Shown here piece by piece: positions 19,218 to 28,076 of a stretch of 64,000 nt of DNA (its first letter is position 1; every line of letters begins with the position of its first letter). The translations under genes were made by a program, and so were the position numbers. The notes under the pieces were generated by a model. The model worked only from the letters and a program-made list of their open reading frames with translations, made no database searches and was not told where the DNA came from. Source of the DNA: Chloroflexota bacterium (GTDB lineage Bacteria > Chloroflexota > UBA4733); NCBI GenBank assembly GCA_023381555.1, contig JAMCRV010000091.1:9556-73555 (forward strand). Direction: 5' to 3'.

Positions 19218-20350
19218 GTAATGATAAGTTTATGCCGATTGCGGAACCATCGCTGTCCCATCTGGAGTTGCAGTACGTCACCGACGCGGTGCGTAGCGGC
19301 TGGGTGTCATCGAAGGGCCCGTTCGTCGACCGCTTTGAACAGAGCCTGGCCGAGTACCTGGGCGCACGGTTTGCCGTATCCACGTGCAACGGCACTGCGG
19401 CGTTGCATCTGGCTCTTGCAGCGCTCGGCGTTGGTCCGGGCGACGAGGTTATCGTACCAACCCTGACATTCATCGCGACCGCCAACGCAGTGCGCTATGT
19501 CGGCGCCACGCCTGTGCTGTGTGATGTCGATTCCAGCACCTGGTGCATGCGCGCCGCTGATGCTGCACCGCTGCTGACGTCGCGTACGAAGGCAATCATC
19601 CCAGTGCATCTTTACGGCCACCCCGCAGATATGGACGATATCTGTGCTCTGGCCGCGCATCATAACCTCCTCGTGGTGGAAGATGCAGCGGAAGCCCTTG
19701 GTGCATGCTATAAGCAACGTAAGGTAGGAACGATCGGCCATGCTAGTGTCTTCAGCTTCTATGGTAACAAAATGATTACCACGGGAGAGGGCGGCATGCT
19801 GGTCACAGATGATCCGGATCTATATCAACGAGCCAGAGTCTTGCGCGATCACGGGATGGATCCCGATCGACGCTACTGGCATCCGTGGATCGGCTTCAAC
19901 TTCCGATTGACAAACCTGCAGGCAGCGCTAGGTGTAGCGCAGCTTACCCGTATTGACGACCTGCTCGGCGCGAAGATTTCCAATGCACAGGCGTACCGCA
20001 GAATATTAGCCGGCATTCCCGGCGTGGAGCCCCAGCGGGAGCAGGAATGGGCAGCGAGCTCCTGGTGGATGTTCTCCGTGACCCTAGGCGAGGAGTTGGC
20101 AATGACTCCCAACGAGCTTGCCAGACGATTGCGTGAGCGGGGCATTGACTCGCGGCCGGTTTTTCACCCGATCCATCACATGCCGCCGTACCACCAGGAT
20201 CTGCGGCTGCCAGTGAGCGAACGCATTGCGCGTACCGGATTGAGCCTGCCCAGCGGCGCGCTATTAACTCAAGGAGATGTAGAACGGGTGTGCGTCGAGA
20301 TTGAATGCGCCCTGCGCGCAAACTCTAGCGAGAGTCTGCTAGGGTCGTGA
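19214..20350 (+). CDS. DegT/DnrJ/EryC1/StrS-family PLP-dependent sugar aminotransferase.
   Basis: DegT signature segments are present (VTDAVRSGWVSSKGPFVDRFE...FAVSTCNGTAALHLAL). The GTG start overlaps the upstream stop (GTGA); the conserved start is more likely MPIAEPSL at 19232. Confidence 0.85.
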   Translation: MSNDKFMPIAEPSLSHLELQYVTDAVRSGWVSSKGPFVDRFEQSLAEYLGARFAVSTCNGTAALHLALAALGVGPGDEVIVPTLTFIATANAVRYVGATPVLCDVDSSTWCMRAADAAPLLTSRTKAIIPVHLYGHPADMDDICALAAHHNLLVVEDAAEALGACYKQRKVGTIGHASVFSFYGNKMITTGEGGMLVTDDPDLYQRARVLRDHGMDPDRRYWHPWIGFNFRLTNLQAALGVAQLTRIDDLLGAKISNAQAYRRILAGIPGVEPQREQEWAASSWWMFSVTLGEELAMTPNELARRLRERGIDSRPVFHPIHHMPPYHQDLRLPVSERIARTGLSLPSGALLTQGDVERVCVEIECALRANSSESLLGS

Positions 20351-20368
20351 CCATTATGAGGACGGCTA

Positions 20369-21625
20369 GTGTTGAGGGCTTCCGTATTGCCTACGCTAAG
20401 GTCCACCGTAGAATGCGATAATGTGCATATTCTCCAGGTCGCTCCAGGATATACGCCATACGTCGGCGCCGCCGTAAACCTCGTGCGCTCGCTTAGAGGG
20501 CAGTGGATTAACCTTGGCCACCGCGTCACGTTAGTCGCTCCAAAGCCACACCCCAGACTGCAATGGATGCGCGAGGCGACTGCCGACAGCGGAGATGATG
20601 GATTGGGTAGAGTTGCTCGCGTGCCTCTCCTGTTTGCCAGCCGCCGTGGTGTCTGGATCGTTTCCGCGCCGCGCTTCTACCATACTATTCGTCACATCTG
20701 CCGGACCGACCGCCCTGATGTCGTTTTTGTCCACTACGTTCCCTGGAACTGCCTTGGATGGGCCGCCTATATGGCAGCTCATCCGCTCAATATTCCAGTC
20801 GTTGCGCGCGTTCATGACATTTATCGCCCAGTTGGTATGAAGGACCGCTTCTTCGATCTGGTGAATAACCGTGCATTGCTGCCCCGGCTAAGCCACATCG
20901 AGGCGACGAACCAGAGTTCGCGTTGCTACCTCTCGCGTACGTACAGTATCGCCGACAACCGCGTGCTCATCAGACCCAATGGCCTTAACCTCGACCGGTA
21001 TCGGCCTCTTGGTCAGGCGCTAGAGAGTGGGAATTGCGCACCAACAATTTGTTATGTTGGGGCGCTGAACGGGCATCGAGGACTTGAGCAAATGGCAGCA
21101 ATTTACGCCCGCGTGCGGGCGAAGGTGTCTGACTGCAAGTTGCTGATCATTGGAGATGGTGCTGGCAGGCAGCAGTTGCTCGCGGAGGCCGACCGTCTGG
21201 GCATTACCGACAGCATAGAAATCACCGGTGCATTATCTGTGCCCTTGATGGTCAATCGGTTGCGCGACGTGCATGTCGGTCTCGGTACATTCGATACTGC
21301 CAGCAACTACGCTGAGTTCCAGATGCTCACAAAAGCGCTGGACTATACCGCGATGGGCATCCCCTGGGTGTCCTTCAGCACCCCCGGCGTCCAGGATCTT
21401 TGTCACAGCGTCGGATCCGGGATAGCCGTTCCAGCCGATATCGAGGTGGCAGCCGAAACCGTGGCAGCGCTGCTCCTAAATAAAAATATGCGGCGCGACA
21501 TGGCCCATCGCGGTCTCAGCAATATCGAGCGCTACGACTGGCGGCGGCAGGCAGAACAGATCGCGGACGACATGAAGCGGGCTGTCATCTCTTCTCGGGA
21601 ACAGCGAACAAAGGAGGGGGGATAA
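20369..21625 (+). CDS. GT4-family glycosyltransferase.
   Basis: Conserved GT4 Rossmann halves are present, including LLIIGDGAGRQQLLAEADRLGITDSIEITG. Confidence 0.75.
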   Translation: MLRASVLPTLRSTVECDNVHILQVAPGYTPYVGAAVNLVRSLRGQWINLGHRVTLVAPKPHPRLQWMREATADSGDDGLGRVARVPLLFASRRGVWIVSAPRFYHTIRHICRTDRPDVVFVHYVPWNCLGWAAYMAAHPLNIPVVARVHDIYRPVGMKDRFFDLVNNRALLPRLSHIEATNQSSRCYLSRTYSIADNRVLIRPNGLNLDRYRPLGQALESGNCAPTICYVGALNGHRGLEQMAAIYARVRAKVSDCKLLIIGDGAGRQQLLAEADRLGITDSIEITGALSVPLMVNRLRDVHVGLGTFDTASNYAEFQMLTKALDYTAMGIPWVSFSTPGVQDLCHSVGSGIAVPADIEVAAETVAALLLNKNMRRDMAHRGLSNIERYDWRRQAEQIADDMKRAVISSREQRTKEGG

Positions 21626-21630
21626 CAGCG

Positions 21631-22773
21631 GTGATTCACGTCGTCATCGCTTCGAAAAGTTATACATTGCGGACATTTCAGGAGCAGCTGGCCTGTGTGG
21701 CAGAGGCACCGGATATCCGCATCACGCTGCTCAGCCCGGCTGGGTGGCCAAGCATGCCACTTGAGTCCCTTATGACACATCACCCGAGAGTCGATATCCA
21801 GTTGCTGCCGTCGCTCTTCCTTGGGAAGCACGCCTTGTGGTCTATGCCGAGTTGCTATCCGGCTCTACGACGCTTGCGACCGGACATTTTACACTTCGAT
21901 GAGTTCTACACCGTTCATTCGTTTCTCTCTTCTTTTAGCGGCATGCTGTATGGGATTCCCTCTATTTTCAGCACCTATCAGAACATCTACCGGCAATATC
22001 CACTCCCGTTCTCTGCGATCGAGCGCTTTGTGCTGAGGCATTCTTCCGGCGCTATCGCACATAGCGAGGGTGCCGCCTCCGTTCTCCGGCGGAAGGGGTT
22101 CAAAGGGAGGACGGTGATAACGCAGGATCTTGGGGTAGATACGGCGCTTTTTACACCAGGTCCACGCAGGCAAATGGCACTGCCGTACGAACAACTCAGA
22201 GTGGGCTTTGCCGGCCGGTTGGTCCGTGCCAAGGGCGTGGACGTGCTGGTTGACGCGTTCGCGCGCCTGGCTCCCGGGCCCCATCTCTATCTTGCCGGTG
22301 ACGGCCCCCTTGGGGCGGAGCTCCAACAGATCATCGCGAGACTGCACACCGAAGGACGCGTGCATTTGTTTGGTCATCAGCCGTCAAGTAGAATGGCAGT
22401 GTTTATGAACGAAGTTGACGTCCTCGTGTTGCCGTCGCGGACGACCCTAACCTGGAAAGAGCAATTCGGACGGGTTCTGGTGGAGGCGATGGCAACCGGC
22501 ATGCCGGTTCTTGGATCAGATAGCGGTGAGATCCCGGCGGTTATTGGCGATGCAGGACTCATCCACCGCGAAGGAGATGCTGAACAACTCGCGGCGCAGC
22601 TCGCGGGTGTCCTGCAAGATGATGCGCTGCGCCGGAGTCTGGGGGATGCGGCACGACGGCGCGCGACCGAGAATTACGATACGCGCCATCTGGCACACCG
22701 GCGTGCGGCGTTCTATCGATCTGTTGTAGGCACTCCCACGCCGTCAAAGGGGGTGCCGCCAGTTGCGCCATAG
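21631..22773 (+). CDS. GT4-family glycosyltransferase.
   Basis: A GT4 C-domain signature is present (GRLVRAKGVDVLVDAF...LAGDGPLGAELQ...EQFGRVLVEAMATGMPVLGSDSGEIP). It has a GTG start with a strong AAGGAGGGGGG ribosome-binding site. Confidence 0.8.
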   Translation: MIHVVIASKSYTLRTFQEQLACVAEAPDIRITLLSPAGWPSMPLESLMTHHPRVDIQLLPSLFLGKHALWSMPSCYPALRRLRPDILHFDEFYTVHSFLSSFSGMLYGIPSIFSTYQNIYRQYPLPFSAIERFVLRHSSGAIAHSEGAASVLRRKGFKGRTVITQDLGVDTALFTPGPRRQMALPYEQLRVGFAGRLVRAKGVDVLVDAFARLAPGPHLYLAGDGPLGAELQQIIARLHTEGRVHLFGHQPSSRMAVFMNEVDVLVLPSRTTLTWKEQFGRVLVEAMATGMPVLGSDSGEIPAVIGDAGLIHREGDAEQLAAQLAGVLQDDALRRSLGDAARRRATENYDTRHLAHRRAAFYRSVVGTPTPSKGVPPVAP

Positions 22774-23011
22774 GGAATACCGGCTATCTGCTGATAATTT
22801 GGTGGGCCTGCTGCGGTTCTTGGCGTTCCGTTTCAGGCATCCGGGACGGGCCGCCGGAGACCTGGTGTATTTGGGATCAGGGGCCCACATCGTCTTTGAG
22901 CGGTCAGGGCGGCTTGAGATCGGGCAAGGCGCCTATATCGGCCGCGACTTTGATGCCTACTGTGGCGGCAAACTCCGGAACGGAAGGACGTGCCGGCCGT
23001 CTTGCACATAG
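22763..23011 (+). pseudogene. N-terminal fragment of a hexapeptide-repeat (LbH) acyl/acetyltransferase, in the WcaF / maltose O-acetyltransferase-like family.
   Basis: The sequence LVGLLRFLAFRFRHPGRAAGDLVYLGSGAHIVFERSGRLEIGQGAYIGRDFDAY has the characteristic LbH N-terminal pattern. It stops after ~80 aa and is directly fused to the next fragment. Confidence 0.45.
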
Positions 23012-23322
23012 CGGACTACGTCCTCGTCCCGTCGTGGCAAGAGCCATTCGGCCTGGTCGTCATCGAGGCGATGGCTGCCGGCAAGGTGGTCATCGCAACC
23101 AACGTCGGCGGGCCGAGCGAGGTCATACGAGATGGAGAGACGGGCTTTCTCATCTCTCCCCACTCGGGAGACGCAATCGCCGCGGCCGTCGTGCGCTGCA
23201 TTCAGCAACCCGCGCAAGCCAGCCAGATCGCCCGAGCCGCACAGCGGGACGTGGCGCAGCGCTTCAGCTTGGACGCCTTCGCGGGCGCGCTGATCCGGGT
23301 ATACGCATCGGCTATGGCGTGA
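22990..23322 (+). pseudogene. C-terminal ~110-aa fragment of a GT4 glycosyltransferase.
   Basis: ADYVLVPSWQEPFGLVVIEAMAAGKVVIATNVGGPSEVIRDGETGFLISP is the GT4 C-terminal E-x7-E region. No N-terminal domain is present. Confidence 0.55.
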
Positions 23323-23344
23323 TAATGGAAAGGGAAGCTGCCTG

Positions 23345-24505
23345 ATGGCGGCCGGTGGTGAGCGTACGCTCACGTACTCATTCCTCAGCAAGCTCGGCGG
23401 CAAGAGCATGTCGGCAGCGGCCCACGTCGACGTGTCTACTTTGATCCGTGACGGATGGCGCGGAGAAGTACTGGCTCCCTCTTTTGCGCGGCCGGTGCAG
23501 GGCGCGTGGCGCCAGCGCTCTACCATGCCGGGCTTCGCACCGATCGTGTACCGCATGCCCAACTTCAAACAGGATTGGGGTGGCTTTGTGCGTGACACGC
23601 TGCACGACGCACTGGCGGCACGACTGATGACCGGTTCGGCTGTCTTCCACGGTTGGGCCAGGGGGTCATCCCGCTCACTTGAGCGTGCGCGTGCGTTCGG
23701 CGCTTTCTGCATCATCGAGATCGCCACGTCCCACGCCGCCGAGCAGAACGCGCTGCTCAACCGGGAGCGGCGGGAGTTTGGCTACACCGAGCGTCCGGAG
23801 CATCATCCGTGGAGCCTCAAGCGACACGAGGCGGAGTATGCAGCGGCCGACGCTGTCCTGGTCTGGTCAACGGCGGCGCGGGACTCGTTTCTAGCGCGCG
23901 GTATGGCGGCTGGGAAGGTCTTCCTGCATCCTCCGCGCTACAGCTTTCGTGCCCGTGCTAGCAGCGAGCGCGCACCGGCCAGTCCTCTGCGCGTGCTGTT
24001 CGTCGGCCAGGTCTGTCTCCGTAAGGGCGTACATTACCTCCTCCAGGCTTGGGAGTTGCTGCGCCATCCCTCGGCAGAACTCTGGCTCTGCGGCGATGTA
24101 GGAGCTGACATCCAGCCCTATCTGCGTAGCCATCCTCTACCCGGTAGTGTGAAGTTGACCGGTTTTGTGCAGGATCCTTCGCCCCTCTTCGAAGCGGCTA
24201 CGGTGTTCGTCTTGCCGTCGATTGAGGACGGATTTGGACTCGTTGTGGCCGAGGCGATGAGCTACGGAGTACCCGTTGTTGTGAGCGAGAACGTCGGCGC
24301 GCGCGATCTCGTGCGCGATGGCGAGTCCGGTGTGGTGGTGCCGATCCGGAACGCCGCTGCTCTGGCCCAGGCGCTGGAGCGATTGCTTTCGGCGCCCGAC
24401 GCGGCGCTGGGGATGGGAGCAAGAGGGCGGGATCTGTTAGCCGAACGCGCCGCGCGCAGCCCATCGATCGCCGGTATTTACGACAAACTGCTTCACCAGA
24501 GGTGA
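23345..24505 (+). CDS. GT4-family glycosyltransferase.
   Basis: A GT4 signature is present (LRVLFVGQVCLRKGVHYLL...VFVLPSIEDGFGLVVAEAMSYGVPVVVSENVGARDLVRDGESGVVVP). Confidence 0.8.
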   Translation: MAAGGERTLTYSFLSKLGGKSMSAAAHVDVSTLIRDGWRGEVLAPSFARPVQGAWRQRSTMPGFAPIVYRMPNFKQDWGGFVRDTLHDALAARLMTGSAVFHGWARGSSRSLERARAFGAFCIIEIATSHAAEQNALLNRERREFGYTERPEHHPWSLKRHEAEYAAADAVLVWSTAARDSFLARGMAAGKVFLHPPRYSFRARASSERAPASPLRVLFVGQVCLRKGVHYLLQAWELLRHPSAELWLCGDVGADIQPYLRSHPLPGSVKLTGFVQDPSPLFEAATVFVLPSIEDGFGLVVAEAMSYGVPVVVSENVGARDLVRDGESGVVVPIRNAAALAQALERLLSAPDAALGMGARGRDLLAERAARSPSIAGIYDKLLHQR

Positions 24506-24586
24506 GGCTCCGGAGCATTTCATGACCCCTGCCGAACAGTTTGGCGTATCACGATTGGAAGCCGTTCTCAGCAAGAAGGGGTGTAT

Positions 24587-25573
24587 ATGACGACCCGGAC
24601 GGGACTGGACACTCTCGAGGAGGCATTGAAGTGCGTGGTCGACTACGGGCTGCACATCGGCTTGCTCGTCCCACCGCTCTGGTCATTTTTGGAAGGCGCC
24701 ACGGTGTGGGCCGGCCACCGCTGGCCCGACTCCCGAATCACAGGAGCGCTGGCATTTCGTCTAAGGGAAGTATCGCTTCGCTGGTCGCCTTCGGCCATTT
24801 CAAGAGTGGCCATGCTACCAACCGGCGCTCGCTTGGCTCTGTCCCTGCAAGACTATTATCACTACCGTCTGTACTTCACAGGCCTGTTCGAACCTGGCAC
24901 AACGGCGCTGGTGAGGAAACTGCTTCGACCTAACGATGTCTTCATCGATATTGGCGCGAACATCGGTTTCTATTCCTGCACCGCTGCTGCACTTCAGGCC
25001 CGCGTCCACGCCTTCGAGCCGAACCCGTCCCTCTCCCGGTTTCTCGAACAGTCCCGAGTTCTCAACGGCTGGGGCGAGCGGCTGACGGTCAACACGTGCG
25101 CAGTTGCGTCCACTGCAGGCCGGGCCGAGTTCTTCTTGAGCACAAACCAGGAGAACAGCGGGCTCTCTTCCTTACTCCCCCTAGATCACCTGTCGACTGC
25201 CGAAAAGCTCGTTGTGCCGACAACGACGCTCGACGCCTATTGCTCCGCGCATGGCATCGATCACGTCCGACTCATCAAGATAGATGTCGAAGGCGGCGAG
25301 CGGGACGTCCTAACCGGCGCTGCGCGGGTCCTGCAAGACGTCCGGCCGGACGCCGTCATCTGTGAGCTCAGCAGCTTCGGCGGCGGTAGCAAACCCGCTG
25401 ACGTCTTGCATCTTCTCGAGGAGGCCGGCTACGTTCCCTACGAGATCGCTGAAAATGGAAACGGTCTACTGCGCACCTACTCGGGCATGGAAACGGAGAC
25501 GAACTGGGGACCACCCAACCTGTGCTTCCTTAGGGGCAGCCCCGCCGAGCTTGGGCTGATCAGCGCTTGCTGA
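24587..25573 (+). CDS. FkbM-family SAM-dependent methyltransferase.
   Basis: An FkbM-family glycine-rich SAM motif is present (VFIDIGANIGFYS) along with downstream FkbM-family features. The ATG at 24587 has a ribosome-binding site; the ORF track begins at 24581 (GTG). Confidence 0.8.
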   Translation: MTTRTGLDTLEEALKCVVDYGLHIGLLVPPLWSFLEGATVWAGHRWPDSRITGALAFRLREVSLRWSPSAISRVAMLPTGARLALSLQDYYHYRLYFTGLFEPGTTALVRKLLRPNDVFIDIGANIGFYSCTAAALQARVHAFEPNPSLSRFLEQSRVLNGWGERLTVNTCAVASTAGRAEFFLSTNQENSGLSSLLPLDHLSTAEKLVVPTTTLDAYCSAHGIDHVRLIKIDVEGGERDVLTGAARVLQDVRPDAVICELSSFGGGSKPADVLHLLEEAGYVPYEIAENGNGLLRTYSGMETETNWGPPNLCFLRGSPAELGLISAC

Positions 25574-25646
25574 GCGTAGCATACAGCGCGGCGACCTGGG
25601 CAGCAGTGGCTTGCACTGTGAATTGTTCCTGAACTCGACGCCGGCC

Positions 25647-25697
25647 CGCGCGATCTCGTGCGCGATGGCGAGTCCAGTGTGGTGGTGCCGTCCGCGA
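25647..25697 (+). repeat. Near-exact duplicate (~50 bp) of an internal segment of the GT4 gene at 24300-24350.
   Basis: The segment CGCGCGATCTCGTGCGCGATGGCGAGTCC(A/G)GTGTGGTGGTGCCG occurs at both loci with 2-3 mismatches. The second copy lies outside any GT reading frame, at the junction with a transposase fragment. Confidence 0.7.
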
Positions 25698-25699
25698 CG

Positions 25700-25995
25700 G
25701 TACCGGCCAACATCTGGTAGTCGATGGGCACGCCACCCGCTGCCGTCACCGTCGCGGCGATCTCCACCTGCTGGCAGTCGGGACGGTGATCCCGGCTGTA
25801 GCCATAGGTCATGAGCTCCGCCTCCTCGTAGGCGCCAAAGAAGCTGATGGAGGTGAGGTCATAGCAGAGTTGCGACCGGTCCAGGTCAAACGTCACGATC
25901 GCCCGCAGGACCACCTCCTGCCACAGCTCGTCGCGGTGCGGGACCAGGGCATCAAGCGTCCGCGCCAGCCGGTCATCGTTCGCCTGCCCCGCCAT
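25700..25995 (-). mobile_element. Fragment of an IS1634/IS4-family DDE transposase.
   Basis: ...LTSISFFGAYEEAELMTYGYSRDHRPDCQQVEIAATVTAAGGVPIDYQ matches the conserved IS1634 G(Y/H)SKDHRPDLKQ region. Only about 100 aa are recognisable; the rest of the listed ORF (25477-25700) is antisense of unrelated sequence. Confidence 0.45.
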
Positions 25996-26059
25996 CGAAA
26001 AGCCACGGCTCGAACCGCACCTTGTCCGCAGAACTAGTGCGCTCGGTCCCTTGTAAGCC

Positions 26060-26608
26060 CTATTTTGTCACAATCTGCTGTTGCAATTCAGCCTCCGAAA
26101 GCGTCGCGGGAAGATCTGGTGATTCGGGATCTAGACGCTTCAGCGTGCCGTTCTGGTCAAGGTACAACCCTGGACTGCCACCAACAGGGATGTACTGGTC
26201 CGTGTCCCGGCCTGGCCCGAAAGTGAAGCGTTGGAGGAACACGACGTAAGAGCTACCGGACTGTACCAGTGGGGCTGAGTCCGTCAACCTGACATTGCCG
26301 CTCAGACTCCCCATCTGCCGCAGCTTGATCGACGGTCCATTCACGGATCCACGCAGAAATTGGTCCACCCTTACCACGGTGACCGTGTAGGGAATGGTAC
26401 CAATCGGTTCAACCGAGCGTGTATTGGTCGCGGTGACGCGAGCGACCGCCACCGCCTCGCTGTTCAGCTCTTGAAGCGAATGATAGTTCTTGAGCCTACT
26501 TGCCTCGATGAACTGGGGCGGCGTGCTGCCCGTAGCACTCTGACTACACGCGGCAAGTGAGATAATGGACGCAAATAGGAGGGCAAAAAGGACACGGGAG
26601 CGCCACAT
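26060..26608 (-). CDS. Hypothetical secreted lipoprotein.
   Basis: It has a signal peptide with a lipobox (LFALLFASIISLAAC). No recognisable domain was found. It is followed by an unusually AT-rich 50-bp upstream region at 26609-26660. Confidence 0.4.
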   Translation of the reverse strand: MWRSRVLFALLFASIISLAACSQSATGSTPPQFIEASRLKNYHSLQELNSEAVAVARVTATNTRSVEPIGTIPYTVTVVRVDQFLRGSVNGPSIKLRQMGSLSGNVRLTDSAPLVQSGSSYVVFLQRFTFGPGRDTDQYIPVGGSPGLYLDQNGTLKRLDPESPDLPATLSEAELQQQIVTK

Positions 26609-26642
26609 ATGATCCGCCTTTCCTCACTAATATATAGAGTTT

Positions 26643-27296
26643 ATGCCGTTGATATCATCTTGTTGGCCAGATATGGTCGCTGTTTCCTTCTCCGACCGCG
26701 TCGCTCCCCTGCGCGCCTTCGTCGAGGCAGGCCTTATCCTCGACCCCTGGCTGGCAGGGCTGGGCGAGGACTACTTTGCCTTCGGCAGCCAGGAGCTACT
26801 CTACCAGTTCAACCACTTCGCTGACTGGGACACGCAAGCGGCCAAGATCGCACCCGCTGCCGGCGACTATCGTCGTGCCTTCACCGCCTTCACCGGCATC
26901 GGACCAGGCATGCACGTGCTGGAGGCCGTCGTCAGCCTGGCCTATTGGGCCGGCCTGCGCATCAGCGAGATCGCCGCGCTGCGCAGCGCCGACTGCGACC
27001 TCAACCAGCGCGCCGGTGCGCTGCGGTTGGTCGACGCCAAAGGCGGCAAGACGCGCACCATCGACCTGCACAACCAGGCCCGCCGAGCACTCTTGGCCTA
27101 CTTACACGCGCCGGCCGGCACCTCCGATAGCCGGGATCCGGAAAGCGGGTACGTCTTCACGAGCCAGCGCGCGGCCTGGTTGCGCCAACAGGGCCGGCCA
27201 GACCATCTCTCGATGCGCGGCATCGAGCACCTCTGGCGTGGTCTCACGGCGCAGGCCACGCACGAAGAGTGGGCGGCGCTCCAGGGCGCGCTCTAG
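26643..27296 (+). pseudogene. Degenerate tyrosine recombinase (phage integrase/Xer-like), catalytic-domain fragment.
   Basis: The phage-integrase catalytic domain pattern is present through box I and the K region (LAYWAGLRISEIAALRSADCDLNQRAGALRLVDAKGGKTRTIDLHNQARRALLAYL...VFTSQRA). The N-terminal core-binding domain is missing, and the C-terminal HxxR...Y region is poorly conserved. Confidence 0.5.
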
Positions 27297-27299
27297 AAT

Positions 27300-27311
27300 G
27301 AAGTGCAACAC
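27300..27311. repeat. Left 12-bp inverted repeat (GAAGTGCAACAC), paired with 28057-28068.
   Basis: The reverse complement of AGTGTTGCACTTC (28056-28068) matches GAAGTGCAACACC (27300-27312) at 12 of 13 positions. Together they bracket the partial IS30 transposase ORF with ~770 bp between them. Confidence 0.5.
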
Positions 27312-28076
27312 CTCCGGTCCAAGGATGGCGGAGGTGAGCGAATGGGGGTAAGGAAGTGGTCACCAGAGCAGGTGGCCGGGAGGTCGCGGATGGGCTATCC
27401 CGAGGACAAGCAGTGGCACGTCTCCCATGAGACCATCTACCAGTTCATTTATGCCTATCCGGTGGGCGAGCTGCGCAGGGCGCTGGTAGCGGCGCTGCGC
27501 AAAGGCCACTCGAAGCGCAAGCCCAGGAGCCGTGGACAAGACCGGCGGGGGCAACTGCGGAATATGCGTTCCATCCGGGAACGTCCGGAGGAGGCCCAGG
27601 ACCGCGAGATACCGGGCCACTGGGAAGGTGACTTCATCAAGGGGGCATACAACGGCAGCGCCATTGGCACCCTGGTGGAACGCAGCAGCCGTTTTGTGCT
27701 TCTGGCCAGGATGGAGGGCACCGATGCCGACGCGGCCCTGGAGGGGTTCACCAGACGCCTGCGCAGCTTGCCCAAATCCGTCTTGCATACCCTCACCTAT
27801 GACCAGGGCAAGGAGATGGCGCGGCACGAGGAGCTGGAGCGCAAGGCTGACCCGCATAGTCCCTGGCAGCGCCCGACCAATGAGAATACCAATGGTCTGT
27901 TACGCCAGTATTTCCCCAAGGGAACGGATTTATCGGGATATTCGCAGCGGCACTTGACGCAGGTGGCGGAGGAACTCAATAATCGCCCAAGGAAATCCTT
28001 GGGATTCCGAACACCAGCCGAAGTAATGGCGCAACAAATCAGGCAGTTAAACAGCAGTGTTGCACTTCAAATTTGA
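27303..28076 (+). mobile_element. Partial IS30-family transposase gene; the N-terminal HTH region is missing.
   Basis: The DDE region is present (HWEGDFI...TYDQGKEMARH...SPWQRPTNENTNGLLRQYFPKGTDLSGYS). At 257 aa it is shorter than full-length IS30 transposases (~320-380 aa), and it starts at GTG inside the left inverted repeat. Confidence 0.8.
28057..28068. repeat. Right inverted repeat of the IS30-like element.
   Basis: See the left repeat. It is adjacent to the palindrome TTCAAATTTGAA (28066-28077), which overlaps the transposase stop. Confidence 0.5.

Follow-up and report, generated by a model that had tools for sequence, protein, structure and literature searches.

In the 64-kb stretch of Chloroflexota DNA analysed here (the window), a segment of an intact family-4 glycosyltransferase gene (GT4a) occurs a second time between the stop of an FkbM-family methyltransferase gene (25573) and a minus-strand fragment of an IS1634-family transposase gene. 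This arrangement raises the question of how the second copy came to lie there. A reading made from the DNA letters and their translations (the sequence-only reading) had proposed that a paralogous GT4 gene once extended to this point and was truncated by an IS-mediated event. The features that define the left part of the locus are as follows.

23345..24505, plus strand: GT4a, an intact gene for a family-4 glycosyltransferase in which the donor site is located (PF00534, Glycos_transf_1, E = 3e-31; PF13692, E = 2e-34)
24291..24343, plus strand: donor site in GT4a, with left arm 24291-24305, core 24306-24333 and right arm 24334-24343
24587..25573, plus strand: intact FkbM-family methyltransferase gene (PF05050, E = 4e-23; TIGR01444, E = 1e-28)

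Extent and uniqueness of the repeat

The core of the repeat, CGCGCGATCTCGTGCGCGATGGCGAGTCC[G/A]GTGTGGTGGTGCCG, comprises 44 nt with one differing base and was found at 24300-24343 and at 25647-25690. The string and the start positions given in the sequence-only reading were correct, while the ends that it gave (24350 and 25697) were 7 nt too far to the right. Gapless extension led to a match of 24291-24343 with 25638-25690 in which 50 of 53 positions were identical (94%), in agreement with the earlier estimate of approximately 94% over 50 bp; the longest run of exact identity between the copies was 29 nt. When 340 nt around each copy were aligned pairwise, the match persisted and similarity broke off sharply on the left as well as on the right. 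Copy 1 is located in frame within GT4a, where the encoded peptide is NVGARDLVRDGESGVVVP, and copy 2 begins exactly one 1347-bp unit after copy 1.

A search of both strands of the window, allowing up to three mismatches, yielded two copies in total. Self-blastn of the pair gave an E-value of 1.6e-18 and none of 100 dinucleotide-preserving shuffles of the window contained a match to the repeat, in line with the earlier judgement that chance was a very unlikely source. Logan contig L001 (SRR10244963), an independent assembly, was 100% identical to the window over 20000-27314 and contained both copies. This identity, together with an exact shared run of just 29 nt, makes an assembly chimera unlikely.

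Four intact GT4 genes and one C-terminal relic are located at 18-24.5 kb of the window. Besides the GT4b stump described below, a second GT4 relic was observed at 22972-23322.

Synteny with a relative

The FkbM protein showed an exact match in an NCBI MAG and in a Logan contig. Its closest homologue (P0021, 73% identity) is encoded on two contigs, L008 (Logan) and L009 (NCBI GCA_021801045.1), both of which show a GT4a ortholog (84% amino acid identity in L008), the FkbM ortholog (73% amino acid identity) and, directly thereafter, an intact GT4 gene in convergent orientation (minus strand) that encodes a 371-aa protein (GT4b). At the corresponding position, the window contains a short remnant.

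25560..25652, minus strand: GT4b relic, consisting of the last 30 codons plus stop and reading RAGRRRVQEQFTVQATAAQVAALYATLSKR up to the stop (synteny with L008, BLASTP and DNA homology)

Identification of this tail was achieved via synteny with the contig that carries the FkbM ortholog. The minus-strand reading RAGRRRVQEQFTVQATAAQVAALYATL aligned with residues 342-368 of the 371-aa GT4b of the relative (16/27; BLASTP E = 4e-8), whose C-terminus is ...RLGRAGRLRVLDQFAVSMTASQVIALYESVRRS followed by the stop, and the distance to the stop was equal in both. At the DNA level, 25615-25652 of the window matched 2235-2272 of L008 and homology stopped exactly at 25652; neither the remainder of GT4b nor the four L008 genes that follow it were found in the window. 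The stump resembles the C-terminal helix of a GT4 enzyme. Among its best non-trivial tblastn matches within the window were the C-terminal ends of two further GT4 genes, and its only natural-protein match in the PDB corresponded to residues 405-428 of the 437 residues of the GT4 enzyme MshA. A search of a 5.8-billion-protein index with the tail returned no word candidates, and a Pfam scan of the 58-aa minus-strand ORF gave no match, the tail lying beyond the domain models.

On the basis of this synteny, GT4b was shown to be a convergent minus-strand GT4 gene that, apart from its stump, appears to have been deleted from this locus. The earlier proposal that a GT4 gene once extended here was therefore right in so far as a lost GT4 gene existed, but this gene was on the opposite strand and convergent with FkbM, as in L008 and L009. 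The view that the repeat itself is what was left of the lost gene did not hold: copy 2 has the wrong orientation and is located approximately 85-130 nt from the GT4b stop, versus the approximately 160-215 nt expected for this motif.

Left junction and probable templated patch

Comparison of the stump with GT4a and with GT4b of the relative defined two adjoining segments within copy 2.

25638..25652, no strand: junction J1, extended microhomology ACGCCGGCCCGCGCG, native GT4b sequence (relative: AAGCCGGCCCGCGCG), 13/15 to GT4a 24291-24305
25653..25680, plus strand: templated patch of 28 nt with GT4a 24306-24333 as its sole source, 27/28 (A at 25676, G in GT4a)

In a three-way alignment, the window read GAACTCGACGCCGGCCCGCGCG before the breakpoint and ATCTCG... 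after it, the relative's GT4b read GAACTCGAAGCCGGCCCGCGCG and then GCCGAG..., and GT4a read GAGAACGTCGGCGCGCGCG and then ATCTCG.... The hexamer CGCGCG (25647-25652) is exactly common to the GT4b tail and GT4a. At 25641 and 25646, in the left part of the 53-nt repeat, the window carries C; these two 'mismatches' corresponded to GT4b bases seen in the relative, rather than to mutated GT4a bases. When the native GT4b 15-mer was compared with both strands of the 64 kb at up to two mismatches, one other site was found, which was the left arm of the donor site (24291-24305; 13/15) and directly abuts the donor core. As judged from these alignments, J1 was shown to coincide with a microhomology between donor and recipient.

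Because copy 2 consists of native GT4b over its left 15 nt and overlaps conserved transposase codons over its right 10 nt, the part attributable to GT4a alone amounts to 28 nt. The 38 nt at 25653-25690 matched the window's GT4a (24306-24343) at 37 of 38 positions, versus 29 of 38 for the GT4a ortholog of the relative, which indicates that the patch was copied within the window lineage after its split from the relative. Within the 64-kb window covered by the donor search, the patch was thereby shown by sequence similarity to derive from this lineage's own GT4a, a closer GT4a-like donor elsewhere in the genome being a possible alternative. Since both GT4a orthologs carry G, the A at 25676 represents the derived state. 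Retention of this A from GT4b was considered in view of GAGTCCAG nearby in the relative's GT4b, and was rejected because the next 13 nt correspond exactly to GT4a and not to GT4b.

Right junction and IS1634-family relic

On the right, copy 2 runs into the transposase gene fragment.

25681..25993 (approximate), minus strand: internal relic of an IS1634-family transposase gene, approximately 105 codons (NF033559, E = 1.7e-24; 12 homologues aligned)
25681..25690, no strand: junction J2 GGTGGTGCCG, common to GT4a 24334-24343 and transposase codons 102-105 (minus strand)

Residues 6-107 of the ORF matched profile positions 89-196 of the 483 positions of NF033559. The score of 86.8 bits was below the 100-bit cut-off for full-length proteins because no more than about 22% of the protein is left. 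Neither end of the IS is present, and the transposase lacks its N-terminal DUF4277 part and its catalytic C-terminal part; homologues of the relic have DUF4277 N-termini, as in the IS1634 family. Alignment with 12 homologues (50-69% identity) gave the consensus ...GGVPxDYRxLAGNVAD-x-TTPVENL..., where the window reads ...GGVPIDYQMLAGTVADGTT and then TLDSPSRTRS. Homology to the transposase thus stops at about codon 105, near 25681 and inside the right end of the repeat. An 8-mer, CAACATCT, and GCGAC, which a MAFFT alignment indicated as common to the IS relic and the relative's GT4b, were dismissed as chance, the stretch encoding the conserved transposase sequence YQMLAGTVAD. Further to the right, a 182-aa lipoprotein-like ORF, a partial tyrosine recombinase gene and an N-terminally truncated IS30 transposase gene were observed.

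Transposase codons 102-105 at J2 specify Thr-Thr, Gly and the first base of Asp. The IS homologues read GAC GTC ACC ACC (L014) and GAC CGC ACC ACG (L015), versus GAC GGC ACC ACC in the window, and diverged directly thereafter; as far as the junction, the pattern common to the homologues was GAC-GxC/xGC-ACC-ACC. The right arm of the donor site matched the IS junction at 10 of 10 positions, and within the window this 10-mer occurs only at the donor and junction sites. Based on IS homologues with 60-70% amino acid identity, the overlap at J2 was estimated at 7-10 nt (GGTGGTG[CCG]); the codon for Gly-103 varies in the family and 7 of the 10 nt were supported. The databases searched yielded no near-identical IS copy but only partial homologues with at most 70% amino acid identity; the microhomology at J2 is accordingly one that we infer.

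These results supported the earlier description of the site as a rearrangement junction beside a transposase fragment. They did not support its attribution to an IS-mediated event, as the break is inside the transposase gene. Its position near codon 105, along with the loss of both IS ends, rules out transposase action at an IS terminus as the origin of this junction. The event damaged the IS rather than being brought about by it.

Proposed origin of the second copy

From left to right, the locus consists of the GT4b stump (minus), J1, 28 nt from GT4a (plus), J2 and the internal IS relic (minus). Copy 2 is probably a non-functional scar of repair or replication, in which a GT4a-templated patch flanked by microhomologies occupies a deletion junction. 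The ancestral order would have been GT4a (plus), FkbM (plus) and GT4b (minus), and an IS1634-family element would have landed in or past GT4b. Illegitimate recombination would have deleted all of GT4b except its last 30 codons, along with the 3' two-thirds of the transposase gene, and the ends of the deletion would have been bridged by a short copy of GT4a from a donor 1.35 kb upstream in the same orientation. A double template switch would be the most likely mechanism. Annealing at one microhomology, either of a 3' end or of a single strand derived from GT4a, may have been followed by copying of approximately 30-40 nt of GT4a, after which synthesis or ligation would have resumed at the second microhomology. 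The direct orientation of both switches would fit serial slippage along one template strand. We infer that patch and deletion arose together, as one event in one lineage whose ancestral state was read from the relative (L008/L009) and not from the window lineage itself.

An identical sequence would result from tandem duplication of the 1347-bp unit (24306-25652) at the 13/15 microhomology, followed by a separate deletion. The duplication would have placed a second 3' end of GT4a and a second FkbM gene after the GT4b tail, and the deletion would have extended from 38 nt into the second unit to the middle of the IS. Such a course accounts for the spacing of the copies by exactly one unit and for the position of J1 on a microhomology; tandem duplications and deletions are both common, and the single mismatch in the patch permits some age. 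However, the second deletion would have had to start, by chance, no more than 38 nt from the duplication junction (approximately 3% of the unit) and its other end would have had to fall on 7-10 nt that match the GT4a bases at its start, and a second FkbM or GT4a 3' end has left no trace in the window. Duplication followed by deletion is regarded as unlikely, although it carries an appreciable share of the probability.

The remaining explanations have to account for the flanks of copy 2. In the form assessed here, the model of the sequence-only reading would have a third GT4 paralog on the plus strand, close to GT4a, that lost both of its ends, one or both of them through the IS. The abundance of GT4 genes in the window and the adjoining mobile-element debris fit this model, but its left flank would have to be reconciled with an orthologous GT4b tail on the minus strand that lies right against FkbM, as in the relative, so that the 5' 950 nt of a plus-strand gene could not be accommodated. 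Moreover, the right flank is internal transposase sequence without an IS end, plus-strand stops occur within nine codons on either side, GT4 similarity is absent there, and ORF 25611-25814 (plus strand) had no Pfam match. Two independent breaks, 28-44 nt apart and both on microhomologies, would also be needed. Synteny with the relative largely refutes this model, which is very improbable. A long target-site duplication has a precedent in the same IS family, since the direct repeats of IS1634 and IS1549 are long and variable (8-514 bp; PMC2266710) and the 44-53 nt found here are within that range. Copies of a target site should, however, flank the IS termini, whereas here the IS relic is located outside the pair and the 3' end of GT4a, FkbM and the GT4b tail are located between its members. 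In addition, copy 2 abuts the interior of the transposase gene at about codon 105 instead of an inverted repeat, and 15 nt of it are native GT4b. Target-site duplication, which this anatomy refutes, was consequently given next to no credence. Finally, a chance or convergent GC-rich motif, a genome-wide repeat or an assembly chimera might be invoked on account of the GC-rich composition of the motif region and the recurrence of an exact 24-mer in six unrelated public contigs, one from 185,579 species genomes and five from 241 million metagenome records. These six matches (24-38 nt) are the reverse complement of a histidine-kinase G2 box, GLGLAIAHEI, on the opposite strand and never occur together with GTGTGGTGGTGCCG; no other GT4 gene with the exact 24-mer was found in the same two collections. 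Together with the count of two copies in the 64 kb scanned, the shuffled sequences, the identical locus in L001 and the 29-nt exact run, this makes such explanations very unlikely as judged from the window and these collections. Derivation of copy 2 itself from a histidine-kinase gene was rejected, as its 37/38 match to GT4a includes the part that is not kinase-like.

Comparison with known systems

Templated 'filler' insertions at deletion junctions are the subject of the FoSTeS/MMBIR and SD-MMEJ models, which invoke serial template switching or synthesis-dependent microhomology-mediated end joining and have been established chiefly in eukaryotes. The scar proposed here would resemble such insertions in its direct-orientation copy from 1.35 kb away, in the microhomology at both switch points and in the accompanying deletion. 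In IS-disrupted GT pseudogenes of polysaccharide clusters, a counterpart can be seen to GT4b, of which 30 codons remain next to IS debris at the margin of a cluster rich in GT4 genes, with the difference that the repeated segment in the window stems from the intact neighbour GT4a and not from the disrupted gene.

[quoted passage not shown] As to mechanism, SPDIR involves annealing of single strands at the replication fork and is suppressed by RecA, DprA, RecJ and ExoX (bioRxiv 10.1101/2023.11.22.568220). The 28-44 nt at the present locus would constitute an ectopic patch from the same genome within this size range that was joined through a microhomology on each side, one of the two at least being 'extended' and containing mismatches (13/15). 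In contrast to laboratory events, which are microindels of a few to tens of bases, at least approximately 1 kb of GT4b (more than 1 kb by comparison with the relative) and at least approximately 0.9 kb of the IS were lost here, unless already gone, and the total loss seems to exceed 2 kb. We tentatively suggest, with somewhat less than even confidence, that the locus is a naturally preserved case of SPDIR in an uncultivated Chloroflexi genome, for which it is possible to reconstruct the donor, the microhomologies at both crossovers and the ancestral order of the genes. If so, it would join a small number of examples from outside laboratory Acinetobacter, and such patches would be able to bridge kilobase-scale deletions.

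Annotation and biological meaning

A single ORF extends across the scar.

25477..25995, minus strand: chimeric 172-aa ORF, NCBI hypothetical protein M1296_05465, which reads through the IS relic and the patch and then, out of frame, through the GT4b relic before it enters the antisense strand of the FkbM 3' end

No Rfam match was found in the scar region, its predicted RNA structure showed no excess over shuffled sequence (z = -0.26), and no promoter-like or terminator-like site was detected at the scar. By these sequence analyses, no sign of function was found. The annotation of M1296_05465 as a 'hypothetical protein' can be corrected to an IS relic fused to out-of-frame junk.

As a clean worked example, from an environmental genome, of an apparently templated patch bounded by microhomologies at a deletion junction, the locus may help those who catalogue mutation signatures. 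The scar is of an ordinary, known kind and is of little importance for the biology of the organism itself. From its polysaccharide gene cluster, the convergent GT4b and downstream genes that have been kept in the relative are missing.

Stop codons and microhomology at the junction

In the window, the stop codon of the GT4b relic (25560-25562), the remaining tail of a convergent family-4 glycosyltransferase gene, falls within the 3' end of the FkbM methyltransferase gene, resulting in a tail-to-tail frame overlap of 14 nt (25560-25573). On the contig of the related lineage that carries an intact GT4b (L008), 9 nt (2172-2180) separate the stop codon of FkbM from that of the convergent GT4b.

Within the microhomology J1, shared by the GT4b tail and the intact glycosyltransferase gene GT4a, position 25639 is a C in both the window and GT4a and an A in the relative's GT4b, which places Arg (window) versus Leu (relative) in the GT4b tail. 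This C could represent ordinary lineage divergence, or it could be a donor base fixed from heteroduplex.

The scar is spanned by an annotated reading frame:

25477-25995, minus strand, 172-aa ORF (NCBI hypothetical protein M1296_05465), chimera

M1296_05465 begins with approximately 105 codons of the IS1634 transposase relic, then reads through the patch copied from GT4a, the GT4b stump (out of frame) and the antisense FkbM 3' end. 

Histidine-kinase matches of the copied motif

Translated as its reverse complement, the DNA of the GT4a motif (24306-24329; copy at 25653-25676) gives GLAIAHEI, which is the sensor histidine kinase G2 box. Exact matches to this 24-mer in public genome and metagenome collections were all histidine-kinase genes, read on the other strand (6/6), and none were GT4 genes (0/6). 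The match between the GT4a motif and the G2 box is a chance similarity of GC-rich coding sequences.

Flanking remnants

Mobile-element remnants are clustered at 26060-28076; at this place L008 carries GT4b, a further GT4 and two methyltransferases. The remnants include:

26643-27296, partial tyrosine recombinase (Phage_integrase profile positions 24-124 of 172)
27303-28076, IS30 transposase without its N-terminus

A lipoprotein-like ORF of 182 aa also belongs to the cluster, together with its terminator-like hairpin at 26004-26019 (minus strand).

Another relic lies between a GT4 gene (21631-22773) and GT4a:

22972-23322, plus strand, second GT4 relic, C-terminal ~115 aa left

Its 110-aa ORF (22990-23322) matches PF00534 at profile positions 87-171 of 172. 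Since only the C-terminal part is present, the 5' portion of a further glycosyltransferase gene has been lost from the cluster.
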